Part shown: piece after piece, positions 7,101 through 61,387 of the stretch
How positions within the stretch are numbered: the stretch's first letter is position 1
Layout of the letters: every line of letters starts with the position of its first letter
Origin: Blasia pusilla
Lineage: Eukaryota
Length of the DNA: 64,000 bases
Direction: 5' to 3'
Assembly: GCA_050084515.1 (NCBI GenBank)
Contig: CM114271.1
Coordinates: 33,728,001-33,792,000 of the forward strand
The notes under the pieces: model-generated
Seen by the model: only the letters and a program-made list of their open reading frames with translations
What the model was told of the DNA's origin: nothing
Databases searched by the model: none
Position numbers and translations under genes: made by a program

Positions 7101-7460
7101 TTCCGAACATTGACGGTAAGTTGATCCGAGCTTAGCAATAGTTCTTGCATGCTTGCGGTGTATGTTGCGTGGTTCCGCCCATGGTGGAGCCACTATGCTA
7201 GTCCGTGATGGGTGTTTTGAGAGGATGGCATATGGCATGTTTGACGCCACATCTCACTAATGTTCCTCAAGGACGATGGATGTGTCCCATATGTACATAG
7301 AGTAGGTAGTTCTACATTCCGACTTGTGTCTGTAACATGGATGACAAGAAGGCGACTAACGATGGGGTCACATGAGCACCCAACCTTCTTGCTCTTAGCG
7401 TCCGAGAGATGTATGTCATGGTAGGTAGGGATAGATGGCTACCTGGAGTTAGGGGGCCAT

Positions 7461-9986: not shown

Positions 9987-12555
9987 TCAAATATCAAGAT
10001 TTTAGTTTTTCTTTGGTAAAGATTAATCCCTCAACAAGTGTAAGAAATCGTGAAACAAAATTATGTTTAGGTTATTATTATAGGATGAGCCTTCAACTTT
10101 GCAAAGACTCCTCCACATACACAAGAGAAGAGTCTTGAAGATATGTGTGATAATTTATGACCCCCACATTATTTTCATCTCTTAACATCTTTCATCATCA
10201 AAGAAGGAGAATACATTTGAGCATGGATATTGTCAAATTTTCATCCATCCACAATTTCTTAGAATATTTTATTTTATGATGAAATTTTAGAAACTCTCCT
10301 CATAACTTGATTATGCCCTTCTCAAAATAATAAGAATGGTATCTCGCTTATAGCGTAGAGCATCTCCATTTCACAAAGGAGATTTTTCTTAGAAGGAAAC
10401 AACCTTTTATTTTCCATAAGATAAATTTTTGTTTTTCAAATTGCATCCATTAATTTTTCCATCTCTTCTTGAATATGATAGTTTTATGTTGTTCAAGAAT
10501 AATTTAAAGTAAATGATACATACAATAACTAAACTCAAGGAAATTAAATTGAATCTTCGAATCAGGAGACGTTAATTTAGAGAAAATTACAAATGTAACT
10601 TGGGATAAAGGAAAGGAAGAAATTGGGAAACAATTCATTACAATATTTACATTAAAAAAATATCTTCCAAAACTAAAATTAAAGTGAAGAAGAAGGAAAA
10701 AGGACCACTAAAGGGAAGGATTTAAAGTGAAAAAAATGCTAAATTAAAAGATATAAACATAACGTTATAGAAAACAAAGAATGAATTACTAAAAAGGAGA
10801 AGGGATTTTTCAAGGAAAATAAATGCATTAATTCTAATTTATTCCATAAGAATAAAGAATAATTGTAAGATATTGGAAGCTTCCTTGTAAGCTTGAAAGA
10901 CCATCAACCACAAAGTTGGGAGAAAGAAAATAGGGAAATGCCAAAAAATTAGGATCATCTAAAGATGAAAGGAACAATTCAAAAAATATTAATGAGATAG
11001 GAGCTCATAGGTGAACTATAGGGAATTCCCAAGGTTGCATAGGCCAAACGGAAATGTCCATGGACATCATCATGTTGTGTCAACACCGCATCCAAGGAAT
11101 CACATATCATGAGCCAAACCCACTTATGTGGGAGAATAGTGTGCTAGTAGAGGAACCACCATAGCCAAGAGCTCTACTCACTAGAGAGGTTAACTTCATA
11201 CATAGGGTTGAAAGGGTTAACTCTGTTCTTTGAGGGTGACTTTTCCACAATATGTCCTCTAAGGTTAGAGGACATATTGTGAAAAGTCACTCAACCGAGT
11301 TAGTTCCGTTGAACCCTATGTATGAAAGTTAACCTCTGGTAGTAGTAGAGCTCTTGGCTATGGTGGCCTCTACTAGCACACTATTCTCCCATAATGGAGT
11401 GGGTTTGGCTCCATTATATGTGATTCCTTGGAGCGGTGTTGACACAACATGATGATGCATGTCCATGGAGTTTGTGGTGGCCTATGCAACCTTGGGAATT
11501 CCCCTACTAACCTTCGCTCCTATCTCATTAATATTTTTTGAATCGAATTCCTTTCATCTTTAGATGATCCTAATTTTTTTATTTCCCTATTTTCTTTCTC
11601 CCAACTTTCAGGGTATATTTGTCTTTCCTTAACCGTCCTTCCAATACCTTCAATTATTCTTTATTCTTATGGAATAAATTAGAATTAATGCATTTATTTT
11701 CCTTGAAAAATCCCTTCTCCTTTTTAGTAATTCATTCTTTGTTTTCTATAACGTTATGTTTATATCTTTTAATTTAGCATTTTTTTCACTTTAAATCCTT
11801 CCCTTTAGTGGTCCTTTTTCCTTCTTCTTCACTTTAATTTTAGTTTTGGAAGATATTTTTTTAATGTAAATATTGTAATGAACATCTTCCTCTAGTTTAG
11901 ATTCCTTTCCTTTATCCTAAGGTTGGAGATTTGTAATTTTCTCTAAATTAATGATGATTCAAGATTCAATTTAATTTCCTTGGAGTTTAGGTTATTGTAT
12001 GTAGTGCCATTTAGCTTTAAATTGTTCTTCAACAACAAAAACTATCATATTCAAGAAGAGATATAAAATTAATGGATGGAGGATTTGAAAACAAAAATTT
12101 ATCTTTGGAAAATAAAAGGTTGTTTCGACATGCCTAAGAAAATGGGACATTTTGGGGAAATGGAGATGCTTACTCCTGGTAAGCGATTGATACCATTCTT
12201 ATTATTTTGAGAAGGTGGTGTCATGTTGTATGGTTTATGAGGAGAGTTTCTAAAATTTCATCATAAAATAAAATATTCTAAGAAATTGTGGATGGATGAA
12301 AATTTGACAATATCCATGCTCAAATGTATTCTCCCTTCTTTCACAAGAGAAAGATGTTAAGAGATGAAAATAATGTGGGGGTCATAAATTATCACACATA
12401 TCTTCAAGACTCTTCTCTTGTGTATGTGGAGGAGTCTTTGCAAAGTTGAAGGCTCATCCTATAATAATAACCTAAACATAATTTTGTTTCACGATTTCTT
12501 ACACTTGTTGAGGGATTAATCTTTACCAAAGAAAAACTAAAATCTTGATATTTGA
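9987..12555. repeat. Long inverted repeat (arms 9987-11262 and 11265-12555, 2-nt spacer)
   Basis: Outer ends TCAAATATCAAGATTTTAG / CTAAAATCTTGATATTTGA are exact reverse complements. Centre is ACAATATGTCCTCTAA-GG-TTAGAGGACATATTGT. Long perfect blocks alternate with clusters of small indels. Confidence 0.95.
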
Positions 12556-14091
12556 GACCATCTAGAGGCGGGATGGTTTGGCTGAGCGTGTGGTTCAGAC
12601 GGTGAAGAGGGCATTGCGCAAGTATGGCCTACAGAAGGGGCATCTTGGAGACTGGGATATTTAGTTGCCATGGTTAGCCATGGGGTATAGGTTCAGTTGC
12701 CAAGCATCCTTGGCTTCCTTCTCACCTTATTTTTTGTTATACGGCCCAGATCCAGACTAACCAACAGCAATTCGTTGGGAGTCTAGTGAGGTGGTAAACC
12801 TTGATGACCTAGAGATGTGGATGAGAGTGTGTTCTCAGCGGGCAGAGCTCTTTCGGAGAGTTGTGCCAACAGCCTTTGAGAATCTTGCCATTGCTCAACA
12901 CAAGGATACGTTGCGGTATGCAACCATTCGGGGTGGAGGTTATCGACCATCGATTTGTAGGTTCCATGTGGGGGACTATGTCTATTTGCAGCAGATTGCA
13001 CCGACAATGTTGGATGTGACGGCAGGCCACACTATTTTATAAGTGCGCAAAGTGTTAGCTTCTGGAGTTCTCATGTTAGAGGGTCGTGATGGAGTTGTTT
13101 GGAAGGACCATGTGCGTAATCGTGCGCCATGTCATCTTCCAAATTTGGATGGTACTATTGACTCAAGCTTAGCCATGATACGTGCTAGCTTGAGGTGCAT
13201 GTTGTGTGGGTCTGCTGGTAACGCAGCCCGTATGTTGGTGTGTGATTGTTGTTCTAAGGGTTGGCACATGGTGTGTTTGACTCCACGTATGGATGTTGTT
13301 CCTACTGGAAGGTGGGTTTGTCCTTGATGTACTTAGGAGAGGTAGATGACTTGATCTTTGCATGATATGGATTACAGATGTGCGACTTACGATAGGGCAT
13401 CCTAGCACCCGGCCTTCTGATTCGTGCACCCAAGAAGGTGTATAGCATGTAGTAGATGTATAGGGCTACCTGGGAGTTAGAGGGACCTAACCGCCAGTTA
13501 GGGGGGCGAGTTGTGGTACACTTGTGTTTGTGTATGCTCTCGTCTATGTTATGTATGTATGTGAGTATGGTATGTCAGCGATGTATGTTGTATTACGATG
13601 TGGATTCGCACGACAGTTGTCATGACCATACGGATTATGTCGTAGAGTATAGTGTGCTAGTAGAGGCCATACCTTATGTAGGGCCGTAGTGTCCAAGTAG
13701 AGATGCGGTTTCATACATAGGGTTGGGGGTTACTCAGTTGAGGATGACTTTTCCAGTAGGGCCCGCTCTTAGGTTGGAGGATATAGTGTGGAGTGCACTC
13801 AAAGAACAGATAGTTCTTTGAGTTGAGCCTGTTGCGTTGGGATTTAGCCTTGGTAGTGAGTAGAGCTCTTGGCTATGGTGGTTCCCGCAAGCTTCGACGT
13901 GGATTCTCCCATCGTGGAGTGGGTTTGGCTCGATTGTATGTGATTCTATACGTGTTTTATGACAGTAGGTCTTTCACGGATTTCAATTGTGGTACACTTG
14001 TGTTTGTGTATGCTCTCGTCTATGTTATGTATGTATGTGAGTATGGTATGTCAGCGATGTATGTTGTATGACGATGTGGATTCGCACGACA
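12556..14091 (+). mobile_element. 3' fragment of a related Gypsy subfamily (copy 3): integrase C-half, PHD finger, PPT, A'-B'-A' repeats
   Basis: LAERVVQTVKRALRKYG...SPYFLLYG; PHD CMLC-x-CDCC-GWH-xxC-x-WVCP*C (13190-13330); PPT AGGGGGGCGAG (13500-13510). The 104-bp A' unit occurs at 13512-13615 and 13988-14091 with one mismatch. Confidence 0.92.
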
Positions 14092-17919: not shown

Positions 17920-18677
17920 AGTCGGGACCATTAGTCTAGGTTCTCCTCATACAAGGGGTTGTTTAGATAAATCGTGCACAATAAGAAGTGAATATTGAGA
18001 ATCCAATAGCTAGTACAACTAAGGACATTAAGTTATAGCCAACTTAAATATGCACCTTAGTTCATTGAAACACAACATTACATGTGATCCCAGGACTACC
18101 ATGAAGAAACTCCTTTGTGGGTGAGTGCTATAAAAACTAAATTAGTTCTCGATCTTGTAGAACATGTAAAGAGGTTATATGCCACATCTAAAGTCTTCAT
18201 GGAATTGAACTAGATAGCCTAGTACAACCAAGGACATTAAATTGCAACCAACTTAAATTCACACCTTAGTATATAAAAATAAAAATTTTCATAGAACTTC
18301 AAGACTATCACGAAAAGAACCTATCATCGGACCGATTCATAGCCATGGGATCCATAGGACCACCAAATGCTGCAAAACCCAAACTATCTAGGACTTAGGA
18401 AACTATTAGTCTCCTCTAAGCAGTCCGTGCATACGCTCATAGTAAACTAAACCAACTTAAATATGCAAATTCTAGAGTATAGCAAATGCAAAATTACAAA
18501 GGTTCATTTCATGTTCTAGTCTAGTAATATGTATGAGAATCAGAACATGCAAAGATAGCTTTTCAATGATCTAGATCATAGCGTGCTACTTGAGAATTCA
18601 AACATACCTCCCATGGGACCAGGTGGTACAAAACCTAAAATAGTAGGTGGTCCTATAGAAACTAATTCCCAATGGGA
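17920..18677. repeat. Degenerate tandem-like repeat (AAGGACAT.AA.TT...CCAACTTAAA), interrupted by copy 2 and continuing at 28444-28545
   Basis: The motif recurs at ~18020-18050, ~18230-18258, ~18450, ~28453-28480 and ~28530. Confidence 0.6.
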
Positions 18678-19441
18678 TGTCGTGCGCATACACATCGCTA
18701 CACAACATACATCGTTGTCGCCAAACATACACACAAACACGCACGATCCCACGCTAACTCATGGTGTCCAACAATGAGACAAGAATATCTCCAATAAATC
18801 AAGTAGATCCAATCTCTCTCAACACCATAGCTCTCAAATGTGTGCACTCTCACATGTCTCTCTCAATGTCAAACCAAACCCACTCTCCTAATGAGAGGCT
18901 TGGGTTATACTCACAAGTCAAGCAAGACCATAGCTCCACCGCCTCATGCCAAGAGGTTCAACAAAGAGAGAATGAGCTCTCAAACTCTCTCTCTTGGAGG
19001 TATACCCCATTCCCTCTCCCAAGCTCTCTCCTCGGTAATCTATGTTCGTAGGTCACCTCCTTGGCTCTTGACCTACTATAGTAGGTCGAAGGCCACTTCC
19101 CAAAGTGGAAAGTCAACTCTGCCAAATATGGAAACTTGCCCAAAATAGTAATTTTCTCGATATGGCTCCAAATGAGGCGAAACGAAGGGGAAACTTGCTC
19201 TCTCAGGTTTCCCGGGACTTGAGCAGGTCATCCTTGACCTCCTAAGTCTGTCCTCCTCTACTCGCAAAGGTGCTCTACCACATCTCTTTGATCTATCCTA
19301 AAAATTTGTGACAACAATCGTATGCATACACATCGCTACACAACATATATCGTTGCCGCCAAACATCCACACAAACACGCACGATCCCATGCTAACTCAT
19401 GGTATCCAAACAACGAGACAAGAAGTACCAAAATATCTCCA
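18678..19441 (-). repeat. 3' terminal A-B-A block of copy 2 (A1 19441-19316, B2 19313-18795, A2 18793-18678)
   Basis: Direct duplication of CACATCGCTACACAACATA...ATATCTCCA on either side of B. Confidence 0.92.
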
Positions 19442-22400
19442 ATCGGCCCCCTAGCTAGTGGTTAGGTCCCTCTAACTCCAGATAGCCATCTATCCTTACC
19501 TACCATGACATACATCTCTCGGACGCTAAGAGCAAAAAGGTCGGGTGCTCCATCGTTAGTCGCCGTCTTGTCATCCATCTCACAGATACAAGTCGGAATC
19601 TAGAACTATGTACTCTATGTACATATGGGACACATCCATCGTCCCTGAGGAACCTTAGTGAGAGGTGGCGTCACACATGCCATATGCCACCCTCTTAAAC
19701 ACCCATCACAGACTAGCATAGTGTGGCTGCACCACCGACGGAACCACACAACATACATCGCAAGCCTGCAGAAACTACTGCTAAGCCCAGATCAACAATA
19801 CCGTTAATGTTAGGAAGGTGACATGACGCACAGTTACGCACATGGTCCTTCCAAACCATACCATCGTGTCCCTCCAATAAGAGAACACCAGATGACAAAA
19901 TCTCACGCCTCTCCAGATGGTGCGCCCTGCAGTTACATCCAATGTTGTGGATACCGTATGCTGCAAGTAGACATAGTCTCCCTGATGAAACCTCCGGATA
20001 GTAGGTCGATAACCACCTCCTCGAATAGTCGCATACCTCAATCTATCCCGATGTTGTGCAATCGCCAAGTTCTTAAACGCCATGGGCATCACTCTCCGAA
20101 ACAACTCAGCCCTCTGAGAACATGCTTGCATCCATACATCAGGGTCATCAAGCTTCAACACCTCACCAACATCTTGACCAAGGGCCATAGGTAAATGTGG
20201 CTCTCGGCCATAAAGCAACAAGTACGGTGAGAAAAATGCTAAGGATGCCTCCCTGCTGAATCTGTATCCCATCGCCAACCATGGAAACTGAAGGTCTCGA
20301 TCTCCTAGGTGACCTCTCTGCAAGCCATACTTGCGTAATCCTCTCTTCACCGTCTGCACAACCCTCTCTGCTAGTCCATCCGCCTCAAGATAATCTCGCG
20401 AAGTGGTGCGATGGTCGATCAGCGCCTGATCCCACAAGGCCTAAAACTCCCCGTAAAACTCTATACCCTAGTCTATCAACACCTCAGCTGGTGCGCCGTA
20501 ATAACTCAGCAGTCAATCTAGGAAGGCATATGCAACTCCATCATTCGCTTTGTCAGACAATGCAACCAACTCTATCCACTTTGAGAAATGCTTGACCATC
20601 ATCAACACATAACGACTATGGCACTCTGTCAAAGGCAAAGGTCCTACAAAATCCAAACTCCATCTATAACCTACACCCATGATAGGAAGTGGATGCAACT
20701 GTGGAGTCGGTGTATTGAACGATGCTTAGACTCGATCACACACCGTGCACGTGGCAACAAACTGTTGAACGTTAGTCTGCATGCCTCGCCACCAATATTG
20801 TATCTGGAGCAAGTTGTACATCCGCTTCACTCCAAAATGACCCAACTCTTCATGGGCATGACACACCAAAACGAAGGATGAGGCACTACATGCACTCTAC
20901 CATCCTCCCAAACTCGCAACACATATGTCCTCTCCCATCGAAACCGTCTGGCTCACTGTAGGATCCGATCCCGCTCTCTAGCACCCACTATGCTTCGCGA
21001 TGCTGCCAGTACATAGGTACTCCAAGACCACTCCATCGTCGTGAATATCTTGGCCACCTGTCGTCTCCTCACTAGCGTCTTGATCTAAGGACTCTCCATC
21101 ATACCTCGCCATCGAAGTCTCAGCAATCTGGCTTTCTATAGCCAACAAGCCCAAATAGGCTGACGCATGCCATCCTGGCATCAACTTCTCATCACTCTCA
21201 CCATGCCAACGAGCTCCAATCGCATCTCAGTGACTGGGGGGCATGGATTACGGCTCAAACCATCTGCATCCTGGTTGAGCGTCTCAGGTCTATGCACCAC
21301 CTGGAAGTCATACTCATGCAACAAAAGAGCCCATCTTGCAAGCTTTCCTATAAGCTTGTCGGACTCCATCAACCACTTGAGTGGCTGATGATCAGCAATG
21401 ATGGTAAAGGGGTTTCCAAATAAATAACACCTGAAATGTGCGACAGTCCACATCGTAGTCAAGCACTCACCCTCATACGAGCTATACTTTGCCTCTATAA
21501 CATTGTTTGAGCAACTAGCGTAAGCCACCACCAACTCTCTACCATCATCGTCATGTTGGGTGAGCACGACTCCAAGCCCCAACATGCTCCAATCGGTATG
21601 CAATTGGAAAGGACGCCCCCTGATCGGTCTCCTCAATATGGGCGTGGACATCAATCTGTCCTTGAGCAATTGAAATGCTCTCTCTTGCTCATCCCCCCAG
21701 TGCCACTCCTAATCCACCTTGGTCAGCAAGGTTAGCGGCTTTGCAATTGGACAGAAACCCTTGACGTACCATTGATAGAAGTTCGCCAATCCCATGAATG
21801 CACGAACTCAACTCACATCTATAGGGCGTGGAATGCGTAAAAGAGCCTCTACCTTTATCGACTGCACACCAAGGCCACTTGGGTATATCGTATGACCCAA
21901 GTACTCAATCTGGTCATAGAAGAACTTGCACTTGCCTGGATGTAGCTTCAGCCCATGTAACTGCAATCGTCAAAACACCTCCTCTAGATGTCGCTCATGC
22001 TTCTCAACCGTGGCGCTAAAGACTACAATGTCATCAATATAATACGTAGCAAAACCCAGACCTGCCAAGATCCTATCCATGACCCTTTGAAATTGAGTCG
22101 GGGCATTCCTTAACTCAAATGTAAGAACCGCCACTAGTACAAACAATCCTTCACATGAGGATCAATGCCCCAAATTTCCGTCTTCTGCCTGTCCTCCAAT
22201 TTGATAGGCAGTTGGTTGTATCCGGCTCACAAATCCAATGAAGTGAAGACCTTTGCATGCCCAATCGCATCAAAGATCTCCTCACGGGTAGGCATGGCAT
22301 ACCTATCAGACTTCGTATGTCGATTGATAGGTCGGTAACCTCCACACATTCGCCTATCCGTCCAATTTCCATACACATCCTTCTTGGTGGGCATGAAAGT

Positions 22401-23029
22401 GGTAGATGCATTCTCTCCATGCGACATCTCTACTAGTCCTACTCCAACCAAGTCCTGGCTCCTACTCTAAATCAGAGCCCTCTCCATGTCACTGAATCTG
22501 TAGGGTCGTCGGAAGATTGGCGTGTCACTTGACAACTCAATGCGGATCCCTAGACCCTTCAGCGTACCCAAATCCTGCATGCTAGATGCAAAACAGCTCC
22601 TATAACTCCTCAGGAACTAATGAATCTGGCGCCGCCTCCTATTGTCAACTTAGGGCCCATGTGTGGCTTCCAACTCTCCATCATGACTATGGTAGGACTC
22701 TCCGGACGTGGGTGTAGGTGGTTGCTATGGTGCAACCCGGTCTCGAACAATAGACCTCGACTGCTCTCCTACAGCCACCTCCAAAATCTGATCTCCATGT
22801 GCAGTCTCCAAAACCACGCTCAATGTTGTGGCTACCATCTCTTGGCATACTTGCAAAAAATCCCAAGAAGTCCAAGGGTGTCTCTCTCAATCACCCCTCA
22901 TGTCGTGATTTCCTTGGGTCTTGCCCCCAGCCACTGCCTCAACCGTCTTGGTAGGCATGGGGCTCACCAACGCAACAATTGTGATCTGTCGCATCTCAAA
23001 CAATGTTGCTCAACTACTCCTAAGCTGAA

Positions 23030-23280
23030 AATCTATGTCAAGTACTTTAGGTCCATCACCTGACCCAAGACATGACGTCGTGATACCTCTGATAGTAGCA
23101 ACGTGGAGATGAGAGTTCTATTATCCGATTGCTCCCATCCCACATGGTGAAGTGAAGCACACCTCGTACCATCATCAATCTCCACATACAAGTACTGCTG
23201 CACATGTATTCCTGCCTGCAAAACAGTAGCTAACCTAGTGTTGATCCCTCCAAAGAGATCCAACACCCGAATACCCCCCT
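23030..23280 (-). pseudogene. Internally deleted DNMT3-like domain of copy 2
   Basis: IRVLDLFGGINTRLATVLQAGIHVQQYLYVEIDD is joined by a short filler to LSEVSRRHVLGQVMDL. Motifs IV-IX are missing. Confidence 0.88.
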
Positions 23281-26200
23281 CTGGGATGCGCCATACAATC
23301 GGTGTGGTATCCAAGGGCATCATCATAGCACTCTTAGCAACCTCGGGTTCCTCTCACCCGTCACGCTCTGGTTCAAACGTCTCACTCCATGCCATTTGCA
23401 ATTGCTCAGTGGCTAAGTGTCGAAGCTCCTCAGTCAAGCCCCAAAGCAGCACCTCTCTTCCACGGACTAATGCGGCAACCATGACACTCCTCTCCATAGA
23501 AATGTCAGGAACGGAAGTGTCCTTTGCATGGATATGTCCCTCAATCAAATCACTAGGCCAAGTGATGGCGTTGCTAAATGTTGCTAAGGTCGCCATCTCT
23601 CCTGGCCGTCGCTTGATCACTGCACATATGAATCAAATGGGTAATGAAAAAGGGCATCCACCACCAAACTACCATCCTGGTCTGTAGGACGCTGCCTCCT
23701 CCCATTAATCCGGAAGACCCCATCGGGTACAACACTGCTCCACCAACCAAGACGTCGTAGGACTCTCCATCAGTCACTATTGCCTTGGCTTGCACCACGG
23801 ACTCATTTGTACGATGTCTCGGGCGAATCCTCACCGTGACCTCATGTCGGGTGATATTCTTTGTGGTACTCATTCCACCCAAGGATGTCTCTATCCAGAA
23901 TGGACAACGCTCCATATCGGCCCTTGTCAGGCCTAAACCTCTGAATGCCGCTTTCCCCAACATCAAGGGTTGTGCTCTTGAATCCAACAAGATGTCGTGC
24001 GGACTAAAAGCTCTACCTCCTGGACTCACCAACTAGGAAGACCTCTCCCCGATCATCCAGCAAAAAAATACCAAGAGAAGCCATGGCATGGTCTATCGCG
24101 GGTCTAGCGGGCATCTCCGCCATCCTAGCAACCGCAACCTACCATGAATCTGACGTGGACGGCCCAAGCATCAGCTCCAAGGGCACGTCTATCACCTCCT
24201 TTGAAATCACCTGTGAACGTGATGCAGGAACTTCAACTCCACGCTCACATAGCGTAGCGGCCAGCCGGAAAACCTAGGCGGGAGTACCTCCTAACCTCAT
24301 AACATAGGAAGCAAAAAATAAAGGAGCGCGGTACACAATAGTGGCCGCCTCCAACAACGTGCTCGACACGTGCTTCTCCTGAGCATCAGCAATAGGAGTA
24401 GTCACACTCGCTTCTCCCATCACCCTCTATGCGTGCACACCAATAACATCACCAACTCTCCGAGAACTCTGATCAGGATCCATTGATGGGGTCCTCATTG
24501 CCTCGGACAACGTGAAGGACTGAGAAAGCCTGGTTTGTTTCTTGGCTTCTCCTCGCTATGGATCCTACTGTGTGTCTGCTCCACGTGTAACAACTACGAT
24601 GACCTCCATCTAGGCAACCCCGCACATCCAAATCCATATCTCTGGCATCTCCATAAGACGTCGATGCCACGGATTCGGCATTGGGTAACCTCAATGCCAT
24701 AGCGGCAATTTGCTGCTCTAGCTACTAGATCTGAGCAGCCATCCCAGCCTCACATCCGGCATCTCCTTGGACGCGTCTAGGTGGTGGGACTCTACCTCCT
24801 CCTCCTCCTCCATGGGCAACTCCACCACCCCCTCGGGAAAATCCAATTCCTCGTCCCCCAACGAGACCACCTAGTGCCCGGCCTCTAGGGCCACTTGGAC
24901 CGGAAACTCACTCCAATGCCCTCTCTGGCCCCCGGTCCAGATATAACCCAGGGTGCAAGCTGAAACACCTAGCGCATGTGTGACCGTACCTCTGACAATA
25001 GTCACACTGATAACCTCCTGGTGCAGCACTATCTCCTCTTCCATGTTGAGGCACACGACCATGACCCTGACGAGTGCAATCGCGCTGATGATGGACTCCA
25101 CCACATGACCAACAAGTAATCGCAGGCAGATGCTGTTGAGCTGCATATGAAGGCGCAGGTTTTTGTGGCACGGCCTCCCGATATCCTCCCTGAGCTCGTG
25201 GTGCCACAAACCTATCTTGGAATCCACATTGCTGCATTGGTAGTGTAGGAAATCGTGACTGCTCTTGCCTAGAACCCATGGTCGCTACGGTCTCCTCCGC
25301 CATGTTGCGCTCAATGTTCTCGGCGGTCCTATAAACATCTCTCAACGTAGGGGAGCTGTTCAAAAGAAGCACCCCCTCCCGCACACGTGTCCGCACGGTC
25401 TCTTCCGGCATTGCGTACCATGACTGGATACCGTGAGCGTCTGTTGCCCCCTGAGTGACGTTAATCAACCGGGTGTAGGCCTCACGCAAACTCTCACTTG
25501 GGCGCCTCCGGAAGTCGTGGATGCTCCACAACTTCTCAGTCCGTATCTCCTGGTAGCTCGCCCTCAACTTAGCAAAGAACTCAACCACGGGGTTGAACCT
25601 TGGACAAACTCGACTGGACGATACAATTGCTCCAGTGCGAGTCACCCCTCTTACAACATCATTGGTGGAGGAACCCTCTCCTGATTCCTCCTCCTCATCT
25701 GGAAACGGCTCTGTCCATGACACATAGTGTGGGTCATAGTAGAGTCTCCAGACCTCAATCTTATGGGCATATTTCTACAAGAACTCATGGTAATCGTCCA
25801 TGGGTGCCCCCTCTAATTGCTGGAACATTCTGTTCCATGCTGTAAACGGGTTGAACTCTCTGGAGTTCCTTGCCCGCCGTGAGTCGCACCAACTCCTAAA
25901 CTCCGCAATGAAGTCGTATAACTCTATAGTGCCTATAGCACCCGAAAACCTACGCGGTCCTCTACCACGGTCGTCCATCTCGTACGCCCAACTGGTAGGA
26001 TCACTCAATGTGTGCGGTGGAACACTAGCACACTCCTCTACACTCTCCCCCTTGTCTGAAGATGACACAGTAAGAGATTGAGGTGGTCTCTCACGTGGAG
26101 ACTCTCAAAACCTCGCACCACTCCAAATAAACCCTCTAGAGCTACTCTCAAGTCCACCACCTTGCCTCTCAAAGTCCTGAAAGGACGCCCTGATGATCCT

Positions 26201-27926
26201 CGTGCAGCCCTCACACGATCACTCTCAACCTCACGAGTAATCACTCAAGCACTCAACTAAATAGGCGGCACTCAATCCACACTCTCTCACTAAGACGTAT
26301 GATGTGCGGCAACAAGCGGCGTGGTGCGGCAAATCGTCTACTGTCCTATCATCTCATCGACAGGACACACCCTCAACTCTGGATATCCCACACAGGTCTA
26401 TGTCCCCTAACCCACATACATAAATGATGCTTGCAGCATTTGCACGAAACCTAATATCCCGAATAACTGTCCAAATCCCATAATTCCCTAACACGTGCAA
26501 GGTAAGAGACCAAAATGGGTAACCTGACAATAATGTCGATGTTGCTCTTCAGCAACTGAAAATCTTGAACTCAAGTTGGTCATAAAGACAACTCCTCCAA
26601 ATAGCACGTCGTACTCCCTTGGTACTGATGATGCTCAAATCTTCTCGATGTGCGGTGTAGGTCCTACGGTCCGGTGGGGCACTAGCGGCACGAAACGGCT
26701 ACAAACGGCACGACACTCAAGAATGAGGTGCGGCACTCGGCGGCATAACCTCCTTAGTAAAAAAAACACAATCTGCTCCTAGTGATGGTGCGGCTCCGCA
26801 ATTGAGACGGTGCCGTGCGGCCACTAACGGCACGGCGCGGCAATCGGCGGCGCGTTGCGGCTACGGGCGTCACGGCACGGTACTCGATCTTCGTCGAACG
26901 GCTACAAATCACGGCATAACAAAGTAGACGGAACACTACAACCCCATCAATCCAAAAATGCAAATGGCCGGCCGCGAACACAGGCAGCCGCGGCGGTGTG
27001 GGATAGAGATTCAGACGCCCAGCTCTACGGGCGGCTGTAACCCAGGGTGGGACAGAGGAGCGCACGGCTGTACGACGGCTCAGTATTTTTTCAGAAATAG
27101 AAGGTGGAAGGAAAGAAGTTGTTCCCCGCAAAATTTTACTTTTATTTTTATTTTTTTTAACTAGAATAACCATCAAGAAATTTGGATCTCCACTGTCTTC
27201 CTTACTTGACAACCCCCCTCCTGACAGGTCTGCAAATTGAATGCCTTACCACAAATCCCTCCTAAGATTGAGGATCAACATCCCAAAAAATGGGATCTAT
27301 TCATCCTACCTCCAAATAGCTGAAGTCCCCTGTCCTAACCACCAAGTAAACTCATTTTTTTTTCTACCTCTCAAGAAAGAATTTCTACCCAAAAATTTCG
27401 AAATTTCACTCACACCTTGGAACGGTGGCTATGGCAGCCCACAAAAACTGTTGTAACTTCACGCTCACACAATGAAAATGCACATTGTTTCTTCCACAGC
27501 GTGCACAACTTTCCGATATACGACCTCATCAAATTGGTTTCTCCATTTGATCTTCCGATAAAAGTAGACTGGGACTGTCGTGCAACCCATTGTCTCTTTC
27601 TCCTACGCAAAATTCGGCAAGGCTTCTGCGCTGATTTCTCCCAAAGAAAATGTAAAACTTATGAAAATACAAATCAGCAAGCTACATGGTGCTCCCAAGA
27701 GCACTGGAATGGGGCAACCCACCCCCATACTCAATCCCTATCAAAAATTAGGCAACGCTTCCGCGCTTCACTCTTCCACACGAAAAATTGGCAAAAGAAA
27801 CATCAAAAGTAAGCGGCTCTTGCTCCGGTGAGCACTGAACAAGGAATACAATCCCCAACATGAAAAACCAGCGAGTGACCAGAAAGCTCCCCCATGAAGC
27901 TCTCTCACTCACTCATTCTCTCTTTG

Positions 27927-28443
27927 TAAATCAAGTAGATCCAATCTCTCTCAACACCATAGCTCTCAAATGTGTGCACTCTCACATGTCTCTCAATGTC
28001 AAACCAAACCCACTCTTCTAATGAGAGGCTTGGGTTACACTCACAAGGCAAACAAGACCATAGCTCCGCCGCTTCATGCCAAGAGGTTCAACAAAGAGAG
28101 AATGAGCTCTCAAGCTCTCTCTCTTGGGGGTATACCCCCTTCCCTCTCCTAAGCTCTCTCCTCGGTAACCTATGCTCGCAGGTCACCTCCTTGGCTCTTG
28201 ACCTACTATAGCGGGTCAAGGGCCACTTCCCAAAGTGGAAATTCAACTCTACCAAACATGGAAAATTGCCCAAAATAGTAAGTTTCTCGATATGACTCCA
28301 AATGAGCCGAAACGAAGGGGAAACATGCTCTCTGAGATTTACCAAGACCTCAGCAGATCATCCTCAACCTCTTGAGCTTGTCCTCCTCTACTCGCGAAGG
28401 CGCTCTACCAGATCTCTCCAATCTATCCTAAAAAGTCGTGAGA
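27927..28443 (-). repeat. 5' terminal repeat B1 of copy 2 (B only, no A)
   Basis: Colinear with 18795-19313. Homology stops where A begins in the 3' block. No TGG-type PBS follows it. Confidence 0.9.
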
Positions 28444-31400
28444 GAGACCAGCAAGGACATGAAATTATAACCAACTTAAATTTTTGTGACAAAACAAAAA
28501 ATGGGACTAGCAATGAGAGGAAATTACTACCAACTTAAACATAAAGTGTGCAAAATTACAAAATTATATCAACATAATCAAATGATTACATGGTCCTTTT
28601 CAACAACTATTGTATGTTACATGTCATAAAAAATAACAATAAGGAAAATGTATGAAACCATCTCTAATTTCAATCACTTCTTCCCCTTACAAGCACTTGT
28701 AGTTTTCGTTCTCTCCATTAATTTCTCCAATTTAATTGAGAGTAATTAATTAAATTGGTTTAAAAGTCAATGAACACCTTACAAACAGACTCAAATCTAT
28801 ATACTAACCAGAAACGGGTTGGTAAAAAGAATTTATTAAAAACCTATTTTATACAACGGAAATATGATGTCATGTATCATAAATTCAATGAAGATATGCT
28901 TAAGAAAGACTTCAATCCCATATCAAAGCACTAGTCAAATAGTATAGACGGGGAAGAGTTTTATTCGATAAACATGTTCACCCTCCATCTTACAGGCATT
29001 TATTGAAAAATGTATTTAAAATGCAGAAGTTGGAAAAGCAAGTTATTCTACATGCATGCTTTTGGATATGAATTCTTGACGATCCGATGTCAGCATCATG
29101 TTAATATTATCTCTTCGTTAATATTAATATGATAGAGATATAACCTTAGTAGCCTTCCCATCGATCCCTTGTGTCAGTAAGACTCAAAACCCGAAAAAGG
29201 GGCCGCATACATGGAGGATGGAAAAAAAAAACGAATGGGGACTCGTCCAAGGAGACTAATTAAACCCTCAACGGCCACCGCACTAGCAAGCGCAAAATCA
29301 TGAAAAAAATGAGAACGTCGCAAAGACGGGAGCACGAAACACGAGAGTCGGAGCGGGTGCGCGAGAGCCCGAAGCCGAAAGAGTCATGGGCAGTCGAGAG
29401 TCGACGCGGACGGGGGCGGGGGCGGGGGCCCGAAATCCCCGACCCGCAGTGTGTGACTGTGAGTGCGGGTGGTGGGACGGTGATGGGGTTGGGGATGGAT
29501 GTAAAGGGGGAGAGGAAGGTGACACGGAGCTCGCGGTCGGTCGCTCGGTCTACGGCGAATGGGGGAGTTGGTTGTGGCGCGTGCGAATCTGAGCCGAGCG
29601 GAGCGGAGCGGAGCGGAGTTGCGCGAGGACGGAGCGCTCGGAGGGGGGGAGCCCAATGCTTGAGCGCTAGCGCGGGTGGGGGGAGGTCCAATGCTTGAGC
29701 GCTAAAGCAGGCGAATCGATCGGTGCATGACGACGACGCGGGGCCACGCGTGTCCTGTGCGGAGGGAGGGAGGGAGTCGAGAGAGACTCGGCTCCCTGCC
29801 ATGCGCGCGCGGCCGGGCAAGAGCTGCGCTAATTGTATGAGTCCGTTCGTCTGTTGTTTGTTTGCTTTTTGTTTGTTTGTGTGTCTGTGTGTGTATGTAG
29901 CTGCATTGGAGTAATTGGAGATGGTCCCACTGCGATCGATTCAACATTCTCTCGCTCCGTGTCGGTTTACATGCGATGCGGAGGATCACGTGCGCGGTTT
30001 CTCGATTTCAGATCCCTTGTCGTGGGATTCTTTATTCACAGCGCTCGTCCATGACGCCGAGGCGAGGCGGCCGTGGCAGGGCATTATTATCGGCTTTCCC
30101 TCGCTCTATTCTCGTGTCGGGATCCGGATTCCGAAAACAATTCTCTCTGCGCGTGTCTCGACTCTCGCCCGAAATCACACAACGCCTTTCGGATCTTCAT
30201 GTTCGCCTTCATGACTCTCGCTCGGACCACAGACGAATTCACTCAGTCTCCCATGGCTCATGGTACGCGCGCTTGCCTGGCCTTCCAACTCGTGGCCAAG
30301 ACGTGGAAAGTTGGATTCGTGAATCGAGCGACGGCACGCTCTTGCTCGAGGAGAGAACCGACGAACAATCGTCACTGCCTCATGATCCAAATCCAAATTG
30401 AAACTGGCCTTCGCTTGCTTCCACATGAGATCCACAGCACAGCAACCAAATCAAATTGTCAGGCAGGTAAGAGTCAGCTCTAAATTCCAGTCGATCTACA
30501 CCTATTTTCGTCGGGTATTTTCCCGTATAACACGACCTTCAGATTTTATTTATTGAATGAATCTTTTCGGTAGTATAATACACGGATGGGAGTTGGTTTT
30601 GATGGACGCAGCATGATTAGTCGCGGTTGTACACTATTGCGTTTAATAACATTGTGAATTATGAAATTTTGATGAGTAAATTTTGCAAGTCACTTCTGTT
30701 CGGGAAGATATTTTCGGCAGAGAATTATTTGACAGAAATCTGGGAAAAAAAATTTCGTGCCGGTTAGTTATTTCAGGTGGGACATTTTCGAGGAAGAAGT
30801 GCTGGCGACGATAACTTGATATGCGATCGGAGCTAAGGAAATTTCCGGTTAATTCCCAGTGCGGTTGGCGCGACATTTTTAGCAAGAAATTTCTGAGTGT
30901 TTCTGAGAAAACACATATTGACATTAGAGGGGAAAAAAATTTGGTCACATCGGTCAAAAGGAATCATCATATTTTCTGACCAAGTATTGCCAATTTTAAA
31001 ATTATACGTTTAAGACACAGCACATAAGAGGACTTCCCTGAAGTGGTGGTAGACCTAGACAAAGTACGACCCCTTGCGGTTGGTGAGTACACAATTATCC
31101 ACCTTTGGCGGGTGGTCCCTAGCCGTTCTTGACGGCTTTGCTTCCCCATGACATCACTCTACCATTTGCCTGCGGATAGTTCGTAACTGATCCATTCCCC
31201 CTCCCCACGACATTTCTTTCGTCGGGACCCACCCTCGAGGTGGCGAATTGCGTCGTCTCCGCGCCCTGCCTGGGAGTAACTTATGTTATATCGCGACACA
31301 TGGCGATTCGTACTTTGGTAGAGGTTGGACGACTTGAGAACTTAAAATTGGCCGACTTTCATGAGCTTGTGTCAGTCAGTCCTTGTGGCTGGAGGCAGTA

Positions 31401-32088: not shown

Positions 32089-35000
32089 TCAGCCAATCCT
32101 GGTGGTGACTGTTTGATAAAGAGACTTCAGTTGTGTGTTCCATTTATCAATCGCTGTATACTTCTTCAACCCCTTTGACCTGAATGCATGGCAATTGTTT
32201 GTCAAGTTTTGTCATGAGGAAAACATCTTTTCTCCATGAGCCTATAACAAGTGAACGCTAGTCATTGACAAAACGAGGAAAAACAGCAATAACCAGGACA
32301 GGCTAAATTGAAGTCTTTCGGCCTCCATCTATGAGAAGGCTTTGTAGTGACTGATTCACACGAAAACAAAATAACTATCCAAGTCTGGAGATTGGGAAGT
32401 CTCATCACTTAAAGATGTGTATACCTGTCTCCCAACTCTAGTAACTGGTTGACTTGATCAATGTGACCATGTACTCTGTTGTCCAATATCAGTGACACAA
32501 GCAACTGTTCCACATCCTTTTCTGGGATATTTAGCTCCTGGGGTCCAATGAGTATTAAACCGTCAGCAAAAACTGGCTCCACCAGATTTTAGGATTGGCA
32601 TAGACTCTACATCCACCGCACTATACCACAGCCAACGCTTACCAATCCAACTGTATCATGATGCACCTCAAATCTCCGGAAACAGTGAGACAAGCCAAAC
32701 TAAGTTCGATAAGAATTCCTGTCTAAATTTTGTCTCAAAGATCCACCATGTCGTGAGTCGTCGTACCAAGACCTACACTACCAAGCATAATGTTTCTTCC
32801 TAAGTTCTATCAAAATGGACAGTATTTTCCAATGTTTGGAGATCCTAGAACTTGAGTGTAGCACAATGCACAATCAAGCTTTCCATGTGAAATTAGTAAA
32901 CACCTGCAGTATCATGTCTTTCAAACTCTAACGAAGAAATAAAACAACTCTTAATCATCATGTTCTTTTATTTGGCGACTAGTAATTAATGATCCTCATT
33001 ACGACTAACTTCTTTTTTTGAAGGACCTTTGGAAATTCAAAAGGGCATACCTTAGAAATAAAAGGAATTCGGATGCGAGTGTAGGGTTTGATGAGCTTCA
33101 ACAGCACTTGAGTTCGGATATTCTTCAGTAGATCCTCAATATAATTCCGGATGAATGGGTCATCCATGATGGTTTTCCGATTGCTCTGCAAACAGAATTG
33201 GGACATTCCTATCAAAAAACCTCGCCCAAGCGATCCCCAACCAGAAAAGCTGTGAAACATGTCCATATCAGGGAGCTTTTGTGCAATGATACCTTGAGCT
33301 CTAACTGTTACTTGAATGTACTGGAATCAAGGAAAAATAAACTGAATGCAACCAAATATGGGTACTCTTCAAGCTGCAGAATGGAGACGACAAAACGTGA
33401 AGAAACAGCACAACATATAGTCCCCCATTCAGAAGAACAAATTTACACAGCTTCCAACCAACAGTAAGACACACTGGTTGCATGAAGTTACTCTCAATAT
33501 GGTGCATTGAGCCACATGAGCCCAGGATCAGATGAGACCCACATCTTGAAGTGTCAGGCATGTATATAATTATAAGAAAAATTTCTTTTGCCCATGTACC
33601 GGGGTGCTCAACAGTTATGAAGGTACTAGGAGATGGGAAACCAGCCTGATTTCACTTGGGAGTGCCACAGTTCAGACCCCTTATGAAGGGATAAAAATAC
33701 TGACTGAGACATTGAAAACTTCTTAGGAGACTAGATAGAGCATGCACTCAGACCGACCAACACTTCCCAAGAGCTGAAAAATGCAGAGCTGAAGAAGCCC
33801 AATGCAGACTCTTCTTAAACAAATGCAGCACTTGACCTGTCATTTATGCATTCATCATCGCTGTTTTATTTACCCAAAATCCCCACTTTTAGGAAATCTA
33901 ATCCTCAGGCCTACAAAACCTGCTACTCCCAGTCCACAAATCACAGGATAGATTGTCTTCAGTTGTCTTTACTCCTTTCACTTGCCATTCTCTTCTCATT
34001 GTTTAGTATTTTAGTCTTTGGTGATAAGTTTACTGGCCACCAGTTCTACACCTACAAGTCATTCTTGCTTGCTCATACTCTGACACAGGAGAAAGCTCTG
34101 CATCGATAAAGACTATTCAGTCTCCACTAGTACACACAATGAAGAGATAGGAAAGAAAACGGCCAGAATTAAGCTCACAAAAAAAGCAGGAGATATATTT
34201 TCCTGAAGGACAGACCTACAAGATATATTTTCCTTAAGGATAGACCTACACAAGGTCATGAGACCAAGAGTGCAGAGCATGAGGTAATACACTCCGGATG
34301 GCTCTTATGAGATCTTACTTTCTTCTTTAGAAATAAACAGAATACAGAAAATTCTGAGGATGTTTGAAACGAAACAAAAATCAATCATTCTATAAAATCA
34401 ACTGCCTGTCCTGCATTGTCAGAAAAGAGGGGGGAAAACAAGACTCATCCTCCTAATTATTTTATCTGCACTTTCACTCAAAATCACTTTCTCTATCAGA
34501 ATCCCTTCTCAACCTCTGAAACCCCGTGAGAGTGAATCCAACGACTTCGAATCAGTCAATCTTTAAGTAGAAATATCAAAGGAGGGCAGGTGCATTGGAC
34601 TGATACCTTCAAAATCTTCTCAAACTCAAGAATTTCATTGCGCTGATAGGCAGCCACAAGGTTTGTCATTGCTAAAATTTCCGGATCATTCTTGTATCTG
34701 CGGAATTCGGTGTCCAAAACACACTTCATTAAGTTACTCACAAGGAGGAAGGGAAATTCCACAGAAAACTAGAAGAAAAATCGTATTGCAACTTGATGCA
34801 AGAAAACGTGAGTCACAATTAGTGTGACAAAATTCCAAAGATTAGAGGACTTACGGCTTAGCTTCTTGACCATCGAACGGATTAACTTCCGACTCCATCA
34901 ACATATTTGCCAGCACAAGATATCTGGGCAGGTCCCAGAAAACGCAACAAGCAAGTTTATTCCATATGTACGAGTATGGAAACACCAGATTTCCATCATG

Positions 35001-61135: not shown

Positions 61136-61387
61136 TCTTCTCCTCATTCAATATGACAACTTCCACATATGTTGTTACTATGCGTGGCACCGGATATTTT
61201 TATGTGCATCAACATATCTGACATACGGTGGTTAACTTTTGATTATAGGCGAGTGTTTGAGGACATTCCAATCATTCTTTGCTTGTGGCATGTACGACAC
61301 GAGTGGCACAAGCACTTGCGTATATAGGTGTGACCGTGTTAAACGATATGAGCTAAGCACTACGTTAGGAAAGATAATGCAAATAAA

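Follow-up and report, generated by a model that had tools for sequence, protein, structure and literature searches.

How does a Gypsy-type retroelement that encodes a DDE integrase come to lie in the genome with split direct repeats, a lone B at its 5' end and A-B-A at its 3' end, rather than between two equal LTRs? The question is raised by a degenerate element, referred to as copy 2, in a stretch of 64,000 nucleotides from the liverwort Blasia pusilla (assembly GCA_050084515.1, contig CM114271.1, positions 33,728,001 to 33,792,000), hereafter the window. The repeats and ends of copy 2 are as follows.

18678–28443, minus strand: copy 2, full-length and degenerate (many frameshifts), with the layout B...PPT-A-B-A (self-BLAST, end reading, TSD, flank restoration)
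27927–28443, minus strand: 5' B, 517 nt, with no A on either side (self-BLAST, end reading)
19316–19443, minus strand: A1 (self-BLAST, end reading)
19314–19315, minus strand: the 2 nt (NN) that separate right-end from left-end sequence at junction J; the preceding CA is mutated to TT
18795–19313, minus strand: 3' B (self-BLAST, end reading)
18678–18794, minus strand: A2, the terminal copy, ending in CACGACA (self-BLAST, end reading)
28444–28447, unstranded: TSD on the element's 5' side, GAGA on the plus strand, pairing with 18674–18677 at three of four bases
18674–18677, unstranded: TSD on the element's 3' side, GGGA on the plus strand

By self-BLAST of the window, the B repeats of copy 2 (18795–19311 and 27927–28441) are 90.5% identical over 517 nt, and the A repeats (18680–18785 and 19318–19424) are 91.6% identical over 107 nt. 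The element starts with T(C)TCAC and ends with CACGACA, which are termini of the TG..CA type, and its target duplication is 4 bp in length with one mismatch. The rejoined flanks read AATGGGA followed by CCAGCAAGGA and match the neighboring tandem unit AATGGGACTAGCAATGA, with only ~7 nt of support on one side. The B-only start, the PPT-A-B-A end, the GGGA/GAGA flanks, and the restoration of the flanking repeat had all been described in the initial annotation, and each is borne out by these comparisons.

Two further copies lie in the window.

437–8229, plus strand: copy 1, its 5' part truncated by a Copia LTR (115–435)
7459–8229, plus strand: 3' end of copy 1, with A1 (7459–7586), spacer (7587–7588), B (7589–8102), and A2 (8103–8229)
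12554–14091, plus strand: copy 3, a 3' fragment of a second subfamily, with the integrase C-terminus and PHD, PPT, A' (13510–13615), GT, B' (13618–13985), and A' (13986–14091)

Self-BLAST places B between the A repeats of copy 1, which are 90.3% identical (7459–7582 versus 8102–8225). The B of copy 1 (7599–8104) is 83.5% identical to that of copy 2 (28433–27929), and the homology between the two copies ends exactly at 8229 and 18678, respectively. The A' pair of copy 3 (13511–13615 versus 13987–14091) is 99.0% identical. The recurrence of A-B-A in copies 1 and 3 thus holds, as does the unrelatedness of B' in the latter: upon global alignment B' and B show ~50% identity, the level of unrelated sequences. 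The A repeats of the two subfamilies are 61–68% identical, and 71–80% identical across the last 45 nt.

One explanation for this arrangement invokes ordinary equal LTRs and later damage, the 5' LTR of copy 2 having lost its A or the A-B-A having arisen by local duplication; a 5' end is, indeed, visible in only one of the window copies. Against it stand the loci beyond the window, which are from related metagenome contigs and were counted once as independent when they shared a site. In all eight clear independent 5' ends B stands alone, with no adjoining A, and the flanks are mutually unrelated. The A-B-A or B-A at other 5' ends that the initial annotation held would betray a simple loss of A is absent from these eight. 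Its caveat that the B-only start was clear in a single copy is lifted by L007 (the site of L019) and L058 (the site of L065 and L053), both full-length B...A-B-A copies with perfect TSDs (TCTC and TCTC; CATA and CATA). In six full-length independent copies, the TSDs bracket the start of B and the end of A at varied target sequences, agreeing at four of four bases in L007, L058/65, and L008 and at three of four in copy 2, L049, and L041. Finally, A-B-A is found in 10 independent copies spanning two subfamilies, and the nearly identical A' pair of copy 3 likewise speaks against damage. The B...A-B-A layout is a family-wide trait that is regenerated, not a one-off loss of A, and later damage, a most improbable account, is for practical purposes refuted.

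Two other candidates were rejected: an insertion of B, as an element in its own right, into A, which would require a 115-nt duplication, and an assembly artefact, given that the layout recurs in the window and at seven independent metagenome sites.

Throughout the copies examined, the 5' end consists of B only, and A-B-A or a single A makes up the 3' end; two equal LTRs at both ends were not found. Among 25 loci, the 3' end is A-B-A in 11 (seven independent sites) and a single A in 10, the latter reading PPT-A/flank without B-A (here and below a slash marks a joint). These ten copies count against universality of the A-B-A end. The single-A ends are invisible from the window alone. Among the more distant loci (31–51% identity to the query), A-B-A was detected only in L046, and L077 has ordinary LTRs.

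The left ends of the family read TGTCATGACC (or TGTCAC) and the right ends ..(G/A)ACA. Junction J, ...CACGACA-NN-TGTCA..., is an imperfect inverted repeat in which a spacer of exactly 2 nt (GT, AT, AC, GC, or TC) lies between CA and TG in each of the 10 independent A-B-A copies. The B/A2 joint is precise in most copies, reading CA/GTTG or a one-base variant.

The coding remnants of copy 2 are listed next.

24911–25774, minus strand: gag fragment whose translation shows two CCHC knuckles on visual inspection (no Pfam match)
23036–23353, minus strand: weak remnant of a C5-DNA-methyltransferase (DNMT) N-terminus, with the motif I-like VLDLFGG (pairwise E 0.036 and 6e-4, collinear with PF00145-carrying relatives; no Pfam match)
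21184–21708, minus strand: RT-linked RNase H (PF17917, E 2.5e-31; PF17919, E 1.4e-29)
19784–20725, minus strand: frameshifted integrase, core plus C-terminal part (rve, E 9.6e-4, under the curated cut-off; rve is present in relatives)

Most of the frameshifted window fragments (gag, protease, RT, DNMT) gave no Pfam match, and relatives were used instead. The domains found in the family are RVT_1, RT_RNaseH, Integrase_H2C2, rve, PHD (E 1.5e-8 in copy 3), and DNA_methylase. PF00145 is present in P0015, P0016, P0047, P0084, and other relatives, and in L065 at 8727–9335 (E 4e-5). The Pol order along copy 2 and L058 is RT, RNase H, integrase, with matches to rve and H2C2. The integrase residues Asp 684, Asp 744, and Glu 779 are invariant in 19 relatives and show D-35-E spacing. 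On the basis of these domains, the element is assigned to the Ty3/Gypsy type, within the streptophyte DNMT/PHD lineage, with a DDE (DD35E) integrase.

DIRS-type elements share this repeat layout (A-coding-B-A-B), and a closed circle might accordingly be inserted by an unrecognized site-specific (tyrosine) recombinase, as in DIRS, PAT, or Ngaro elements. Yet Phage_integrase (PF00589) had no match in 118 window ORFs and 15 locus ORFs, frameshifted copies in which a short remnant could escape detection, and what the family does encode is an integrase with rve, H2C2, and DD35E, in keeping with the earlier claim. The 4-bp TSDs at varied targets and the TG..CA ends also oppose this explanation, such features being marks of DDE strand transfer that are not expected for tyrosine recombination. 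We regard recombinase-driven movement as exceedingly improbable. The PAT, Ngaro, and TOC elements nevertheless have an identical X...Y-X-Y arrangement in which the internal Y/X junction corresponds to a fusion of the right and left ends, and TOC1 has a split-repeat layout. They differ in relying on a tyrosine recombinase, whereas a DDE integrase and 4-bp TSDs characterize the liverwort family; to our knowledge, PAT, Ngaro, and TOC elements make no TSD.

Three signals of copy 2 define where reverse transcription would be primed.

19444–19456, minus strand: polypurine tract (..AGGGGG..), immediately preceding A1 (conservation extends to copies 1 and 3 and to the loci)
28091–28106, minus strand: CTCATTCTCTCTTTGT inside B, predicted to act as self-primer and to mark the start of R; a TATA lies 28 nt upstream (16-nt perfect complement to 27912–27927)
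27912–27927, minus strand: predicted self-priming PBS, abutting the end of 5' B (complementarity)

In every copy the G-run of the PPT immediately precedes A1. Positions 338–353 of B in copy 2 perfectly complement the 16 nt abutting 5' B, a match reached by none of 500 random control 18-mers. In the other subfamily, with its unrelated B, AGTTCTTTGAG within B pairs with CA/CTCAAAGAACT following 5' B, with perfect complements of 12 nt in L041, 11 nt in L065, and 10 nt in L049 (reached by 0, 0, and 4 of 500 controls, respectively). The complementary sequence differs between the two subfamilies; TATA lies 28–31 nt upstream. Of 19 B copies, 16 have a hairpin motif preceded by TATA at 29–31 nt. Over ten 5' B copies, perfect-match support for the self-primer is clear in four, marginal in two, and no better than controls in four old copies.

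Because the PPT abuts A and the predicted Tf1-like self-priming site abuts 5' B, the working LTR would be A-B, with the integration ends inside it at the CA-NN-TG inverted-repeat junction. These two placements, and the working LTR that follows from them, are new here. The non-canonical scheme of reverse transcription proposed in the initial annotation was not upheld as worded, for the PPT directly before A and the putative PBS directly after 5' B look conventional. The odd step is more likely to be the joining of ends together with the integrase cut site. Note that A2 of L007/19 and L016 retains CGA, the 3 nt that follow the PPT G-run, and that L007/19 has a 17-nt insertion at B/A2. On these grounds, the left edge of A2 resembles the 5' end of a plus strand that was attached, imprecisely, where B ends. 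The B/A2 joint looks like a circle-type junction of the U5 end with the U3 start. L055 is a fold-back fossil that counts in favor of the self-primer: past the end of B it continues with B positions 176 to 1 in reverse complement and stops at the B-start site beside the flank.

From these features we lean toward reading the integrated form as an ordinary LTR element that has been circularly permuted, joined-ends cDNA having been opened by integrase at J. In such a scheme A-NN-B would serve as the working LTR. U3 would start at A because the PPT abuts it, and transcription would start inside B, ~30 nt past the TATA box. The first 11–16 nt of the RNA are predicted to complement the sequence right after 5' B, in the manner of a Tf1-like self-primer, and U5 would on that account end at the end of B. 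The integrase would ignore the outer LTR ends, its recognition sites probably lying at J inside the LTR. Its substrate would be cDNA with both canonical ends joined, by a 2-LTR-circle-type junction or by an end-to-end template jump of the RT. This cDNA would be opened at the J next to the PBS and inserted via a 4-bp staggered cut. The integrated DNA would then run from the start of B to the end of A, retaining one B/A2 joint where the U5 end meets the U3 start. The single-A copies (B...A) may have arisen as by-products of cuts at two distinct J sites or through later recombination between A repeats, and should be unable to replicate.

DNA and RNA reads were taken from runs with the same species label, namely a 2-Gb DNA sample and three RNA runs. 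The summed DNA depth is ~3000 in the RT-IN half and 1200–2300 over most of the 5' half, and the RNA depth shows a strong strand bias that fits sense transcripts; the family is transcribed and occurs in abundance. The joint counts refer to the 15 rows listed, with 247 further rows beyond them, and leave contiguous alignments through the reference's own junctions uncounted. Among the joints listed, J-type joints were read 197 times in DNA and 25, 32, and 25 times in the three RNA runs, whereas B/A-type joints were read 788 times in DNA and 11, 10, and 9 times in RNA. Among the joints listed, B/A2 is thus ~tenfold depleted in RNA relative to J; A2 is mostly not RNA-templated and must be remade each cycle. 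The B/A joints that do occur in RNA, ~1% relative to DNA among those listed, show that some read-through transcripts exist. The 344-nt depth bins are too coarse to separate U3, R, and U5, and neither a transcription start nor a poly(A) site could usefully be derived from the table of read begin and end positions. The RNA-only joint had no GT..AG within the 3-nt shift tolerance. Estimating the A-B-A versus single-A share from A, B, and internal depth was given up, since a read from a repeat can map to either of its copies.

The permutation could instead be made during reverse transcription, with the plus strand starting at J such that the linear cDNA already extends from the start of B to the end of A. 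The primer might be, for example, an RNase H-resistant PPT-A RNA with its 3' end at the end of A, and the terminal A would come from a programmed template switch; the linear cDNA would carry the usual two extra nucleotides, and the integrase would trim only dinucleotides. The 2-nt spacer of J is, indeed, what classical 3' processing removes, the precision of B/A2 in most copies fits, and conservation of the layout from a charophyte (PMC5890265, on the wording of a legend) to liverworts suggests a deterministic step. J is without a purine run, however, and the conserved PPT precedes A. Moreover, the CGA kept by A2 in L007/19 and L016 reveals a DNA end immediately past the PPT G-run, the predicted self-priming PBS abuts B rather than A, and most RNA is without a template for A after B. 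We judge a plus-strand start at J to be rather unlikely.

The 5' ends bear on both schemes. A 2-LTR circle has two identical J sites, and random opening would be expected to yield B-A-B...A copies as well; none is seen among the eight clear independent 5' ends, which also suits a start at J. If one third of copies were expected to be of this form, the chance of finding none in eight is ~0.04. This leaves directed choice of the site, rapid collapse of such copies, or another mode of end joining. That the lineage must pass through joined-ends (circle-type) cDNA, which its DDE integrase opens at an inverted-repeat site inside the LTR, is put forward only tentatively. If true, a retroelement with an integrase has arrived, by convergence, at the life style of tyrosine-recombinase elements, with its circular intermediate and split repeats, and this has been maintained from charophyte algae to liverworts. 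The family would provide a natural case in which the guides for reverse transcription (PPT, PBS) and those for integration do not coincide, and a direct test of whether a DDE integrase uses internal sites or joined-end cDNA in vivo. Since transcripts of the family occur in the RNA runs sampled, cDNA ends, circles, and RNA ends lend themselves to mapping.

The liverwort family differs from Tf1, which is flanked by two equal LTRs whose outer ends are the sites of integration. The resemblance to Tf1/sushi-type elements lies in a predicted RNA 5' stretch that complements the sequence abutting the 5' LTR. About half of Tf1 cDNA is described as retaining PBS sequence past the LTR end, and such extra primer-derived sequence must be removed by the integrase (PMC11042837, in the portion consulted). 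According to the portions consulted of reports on foamy virus and on HIV-1 in vitro (PMC1180852, PMC1905944), a DDE integrase cuts an internal CA..TG palindrome and regenerates integration-competent ends. That palindrome is the LTR-LTR junction, whereas the cut proposed here would be inside the LTR, with the LTR-LTR-type joint kept in the integrated copy.

For annotation, the consequences are practical, as had been anticipated: LTR-pair finders would pair B with B, drop A2, misplace the 3' boundary, miss the TSD, and date insertions from B only, and the family is very abundant. The attribution of the layout to PAT, TOC, and Ngaro elements also stood (TOC1 is labelled a non-autonomous DIRS element), but its supposed absence from integrase-encoding Gypsy elements did not. 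The legend to Figure 4c of de Mendoza et al. (2018; PMC5890265) ascribes to KnitGypsy-Dnmt3 of Klebsormidium the repeat structure of DIRS elements together with Gypsy domains. The split-repeat layout in a Gypsy element is therefore not new in print. It was noted once, for this algal relative, and not explained there: the article text, as consulted, gives no ends, TSDs, PBS/PPT, or mechanism for KnitGypsy-Dnmt3. That one legend is what the literature consulted holds on split repeats in a Gypsy element, with no ends, TSDs, or mechanism, and supplements and figures may hold more. Streptophyte 'Gypsy-DNMT3' elements are named again in a preprint (10.64898/2026.05.21.726589). As far as the legend describes it, KnitGypsy-Dnmt3 shares with the liverwort family its DIRS-like repeats and Gypsy domains, as well as a Gypsy Pol with an inserted C5-DNMT, a domain carried by relatives and by L065 and represented in copy 2 by no more than a weak remnant. 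The liverwort family differs in its PHD finger at the integrase C-terminus, its liverwort host, and the decay of its window copies. Klebsormidium proteins, one of them with PF00145, match the RNase H of the window at 53–57% identity.

Listed below are the three Gypsy-type retrotransposon copies in the window. A and B denote the split direct repeats of the element, A' and B' their counterparts in copy 3, and PPT the polypurine tract.

Copies of the element in the window
437-8229, plus strand: copy 1, with an A-B-A end, its 5' part cut off by a nested Copia LTR (115-435)
12554-14091, plus strand: copy 3, of a second subfamily ~70% identical to the first, with an A'-B'-A' end
28443 to 18678, minus strand: copy 2, the complete one, with B (517 nt), a 7.9-kb internal part, the PPT, A1, a 2-nt spacer, B, and A2

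Self-BLAST of the window and direct reading of the termini bore out the description of this element in the initial annotation. The two B repeats of copy 2 are 90.5% identical and the two A repeats 91.6%. The copy starts with T(C)TCAC, ends with CACGACA, and is flanked on the plus strand by GGGA and GAGA. Joining of these flanks restores a neighbouring tandem unit, one side contributing only ~7 nt of support. Copy 1 is 84-86% identical to copy 2, and the homology ends exactly where A2 ends. The A' pair of copy 3 displays 99% identity. Between the two subfamilies A is 61-68% conserved; B' and B are ~50% identical in a global alignment, a value no higher than for unrelated sequence.

The Copia sequence that interrupts copy 1 (window 1-435) comprises the end of pol, with an ADILTK-type C-terminus as judged by eye, and the LTR, a second copy of which is found at 61385-61692 (85.7% identical). 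Copy 1 also contains ~2 kb (2037-4079) that is absent from copy 2 and lies between parts aligning to copy 2 at 23140 and 23096. This segment is probably another nested insertion, and no Pfam matches were obtained for its open reading frames (ORFs). At 11097-11426, an AT-rich stretch that precedes the truncated copy 3, two B'-like fragments overlap each other in opposite orientations; their identity to 13645-13946 is 70-73%. Exon-sized Pfam matches to host genes correspond to a PCI domain (32982-33326, minus strand), an Arf-family GTPase (51895-52170, minus strand), and the RNA polymerase subunit Rpb6 (54592-54882, plus strand), the last below the curated cut-off.

The layout across the family was surveyed in 80 related loci (L numbers) from metagenome contigs, evidently bryophyte host DNA, to which self-BLAST and probes for A and B were applied, the junctions being read directly. 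For the 3' ends, 25 loci with an A match after the integrase were considered, and a lone reverse-strand match (L063) was set aside. Eleven of the 25 terminate in A-B-A and represent 7 independent sites after the merging of loci with identical flanks (L007 = L019, L018 = L044, and L053 = L058 = L065). In ten others a single A is followed directly by unrelated flank. Four are otherwise altered: L028 is without A1, A is truncated in L050 and L062, and L055 displays a fold-back. The A-B-A end is frequent, not universal. At the 5' side, the B probes matched 12 loci, corresponding to 9 independent sites, of which one (L005/6) is truncated and another (L024) is without the usual downstream sequence. 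At the remaining 7, and in window copy 2, the flank abuts B followed by the primer binding site (PBS); the flanks are unrelated, and there is no A nearby. The split-repeat observation of the initial annotation is confirmed and extended by these loci, and the A at the 5' end of other copies, by which it would have been refuted, was not found: the eight clear independent 5' ends consist of B alone. Target-site duplications (TSDs) are provided below.

TSDs and layout of the full-length copies
L007: TCTC/TCTC, B...A-B-A
L058/65: CATA/CATA, B...A-B-A
L008: TGTG/TGTG, B...A
L049: GGTA/AGTA, B...A
L041: GGTT/TGTT (3/4), B...A
Copy 2: TCTC/TCCC, B...A-B-A

The locus L041 (9654-10001), which is the same site as L051, carries an internal deletion from just after the PBS to mid-RT, and its 3' end consists of a single A.

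The ends flanked by TSDs correspond to the internal A/B junction, referred to as J, and not to the outer ends of an A-B LTR. In all ten independent A-B-A copies, J consists of CACGACA, exactly 2 nt (NN; GT, AT, AC, GC, or TC), and TGTCA; in copy 2 the CA of J is mutated to TT. J therefore represents the right end of the element joined to its left end, and it is an imperfect inverted repeat with TGTCNTG at both ends. The A-B outer ends are poorly conserved, and those of the copy-2 subfamily are not even TG..CA. The other junction, B/A2, which connects the 3' B to the terminal A, is mostly TTTTCA/GTTGTGG. In L007/19, it contains a 17-nt insertion and then CGA, and in L016 the CGA is present and the CA absent. 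Note that CGA is the triplet directly after the G-run of the PPT. Given the CGA carried at these junctions, the left edge of A2 resembles the 5' end of a plus strand that was joined to the U5 end, in some cases imprecisely; such a form would result from a 2-LTR circle junction or from an end-to-end template jump.

A conserved PPT (containing CTAGGGGGG) directly precedes A1 in every copy. The 16 nt right after the 5' B of copy 2 are perfectly complementary to B positions 338-353, and none of 500 18-mers drawn at random from this element matched B equally well. The other subfamily, with its unrelated B, displays the same complementarity in different letters: AGTTCTTTGAG, located in B, is complementary to CA/CTCAAAGAACT, which follows the 5' B. 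The perfectly complementary stretch is 12, 11, and 10 nt long in L041, L065, and L049, respectively (reached by 0, 0, and 4 of 500 controls), and 8 nt long in L011 and L074 (7 and 22 of 500). In L005, L007, L008, and L058, where this region is decayed or deleted, the complement is no better than the controls. A TATA motif is positioned 28 nt upstream of the predicted self-primer in copy 2, and with two mismatches allowed per arm, the pairing motif with a TATA 29-31 nt upstream occurs in 16 of 19 B copies. The PBS arrangement resembles that of Tf1-type self-priming, which has been predicted for some plant lineages (Neumann et al. 2019, PMC6317226). On the basis of the positions of the PPT and the predicted PBS, the working LTR would be A-NN-B, with U3 starting at A, transcription starting inside B, and U5 ending with B. 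The interpretation in the initial annotation is partly supported: the element family encodes a DDE integrase, and the split layout is family-wide; the reverse transcription, proposed there to be non-canonical, reads as conventional.

Sequencing runs with the same species label were aligned to window 18400-28700 at a likeness of at least 80%. The summed depth of the whole-genome reads is ~3000 in the RT-IN half and 1200-2300 over most of the 5' half in a 2-Gb sample. Differences from the copy 2 reference are mostly C>T and G>A changes, the pattern that decay of methylated cytosines is expected to leave. Coverage of the element in three RNA-seq runs is strongly strand-biased, with first mates on the plus strand; for most stranded library types this corresponds to RNA of the minus strand, which is the sense strand of copy 2. 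The element family is very abundant and is also transcribed.

Reads across the two joints (best-supported joints listed)
J-type (A end, NN, B start): 197 DNA reads; 25, 32, and 25 RNA reads in the three runs
B/A-type: 788 DNA reads; 11, 10, and 9 RNA reads in the three runs

Relative to DNA, B/A2 is ~tenfold rarer in RNA than J among these best-supported joints, beyond which lie 247 further joints and 7026 loose ends, the counts referring to reads other than those aligned straight through the reference's own junctions. Most transcripts thus terminate within the 3' B or where it ends, and A2 has to be remade in each cycle. Among the joints listed, a skip from A2 to A1 is supported by at least 56 DNA reads, and so single-A forms also exist in the genome sampled by the same-species reads.

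We lean toward a reading in which cDNA with joined ends is opened at J by the integrase. Conventional reverse transcription would yield (A-B)-internal-(A-B), the two ends of which would then be joined. Cutting by the integrase at J, beside the PBS, would allow B-PBS-internal-PPT-A-B-A to be inserted with a 4-bp stagger. Single-A copies would be either fragments released by cuts at two distinct J sites or products of later A/A recombination, and should be dead ends because they are without a 3' R. Internal cutting is plausible since about half of Tf1 cDNA has PBS sequence beyond the LTR end (PMC11042837), and cleavage of palindromic circle junctions has been reported for the foamy virus and HIV-1 integrases (PMC1180852, PMC1905944). 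The reading is weakest in one respect: a 2-LTR circle contains two equal J sites, and yet none of the eight 5' ends is of the form B-A-B...A, an outcome with a probability of ~0.04 for an expected share of one third. Extension of the right end only, by an end-to-end jump, would account for the missing copies, as would the main rival, in which reverse transcription follows a programmed scheme and is primed at J; the locations of the PPT and PBS, and the CGA that is retained, argue against this rival.

Two loci deserve separate mention. The first, L077 (200-970 and 8830-8900; 45% identity), has ordinary B...B LTRs with the inverted repeat TGTCA..TGACA. Its PPT is still followed by 57 nt ending in GTGACA, then GC, and then the LTR start TGTCATG, which constitutes a J-like site upstream of the 3' LTR. 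This hints that the displaced PPT and J-like site came before the split layout. In the second, L055 (3242-3880), PPT-A-GC-B includes a complete B, after which B positions 176 to 1 recur as a reverse complement; the inverted copy stops exactly at the B-start site, next to the flank. It looks like a fossil of fold-back priming, the form expected if the PBS tail of a plus strand had annealed to the R start of that very strand and the product had then been integrated via an inverted B-start site.

The window copies are frameshifted, and their coding pieces follow the Gypsy order. In the translation, a gag fragment containing two CCHC knuckles was recognized by eye, RNase H was matched in Pfam with an E-value of 2.5e-31, and the integrase core is weak in the window. 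Better-preserved relatives match RVT_1, RT_RNaseH, Integrase_H2C2, rve, PHD, and C5 DNA methylase in Pfam, and in an alignment of 19 relatives D684, D744, and E779 are invariant with D-35-E spacing. The C-terminus of the integrase is a PHD finger, not a chromodomain, as observed in copy 3 (13043-13324) and L058 (11969-13090). Relatives also have a C5-DNMT upstream of the RT, represented in copy 2 by a weak collinear remnant only. The window is of eukaryotic origin, and the closest protein relatives of the element are from the liverworts Riccia, Calypogeia, and Marchantia, followed by Closterium and Klebsormidium.

The repeat layout is the same as that of the PAT/Ngaro/TOC-type tyrosine-recombinase elements. 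The liverwort element differs from these, however, in its TSDs and in the recombinase: a Pfam scan of 118 window and 15 locus ORFs revealed no tyrosine recombinase domain. Its proteins, ends, and TSD agree with Gypsy, whereas two equal LTRs are not present. Such a layout is already in print, since the Klebsormidium KnitGypsy-Dnmt3 is described in a figure legend as having repeats arranged as in DIRS and Gypsy domains (de Mendoza et al. 2018, Fig. 4c, PMC5890265). A streptophyte 'Gypsy-DNMT3' is referred to in a 2026 preprint (10.64898/2026.05.21.726589). In the accessible body text of these two sources, figures and supplements aside, neither ends, TSDs, priming sites, nor a mechanism are given, and our literature search retrieved no paper providing them for a split-repeat Gypsy element of this type. 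The liverwort element adds a new member to a kind reported once previously.

Two further features were observed in the read alignments. Among the joints listed, one at 21486-22557 is found in RNA only (10, 17, and 8 reads in the three runs, 0 in DNA). It skips 1070 nt, would remove the RT-coding part, and has GG..AG edges in the reference copy, not GT..AG; it may represent a spliced subgenomic RNA. Within the long 5' untranslated region of copy 2, at 27000-27343, the depth drops from several hundred to ~34 in DNA and 0 in RNA, a repeat at 27128-27166 having been skipped in the alignment. This segment is therefore not common to the family and is probably a copy-specific insertion.
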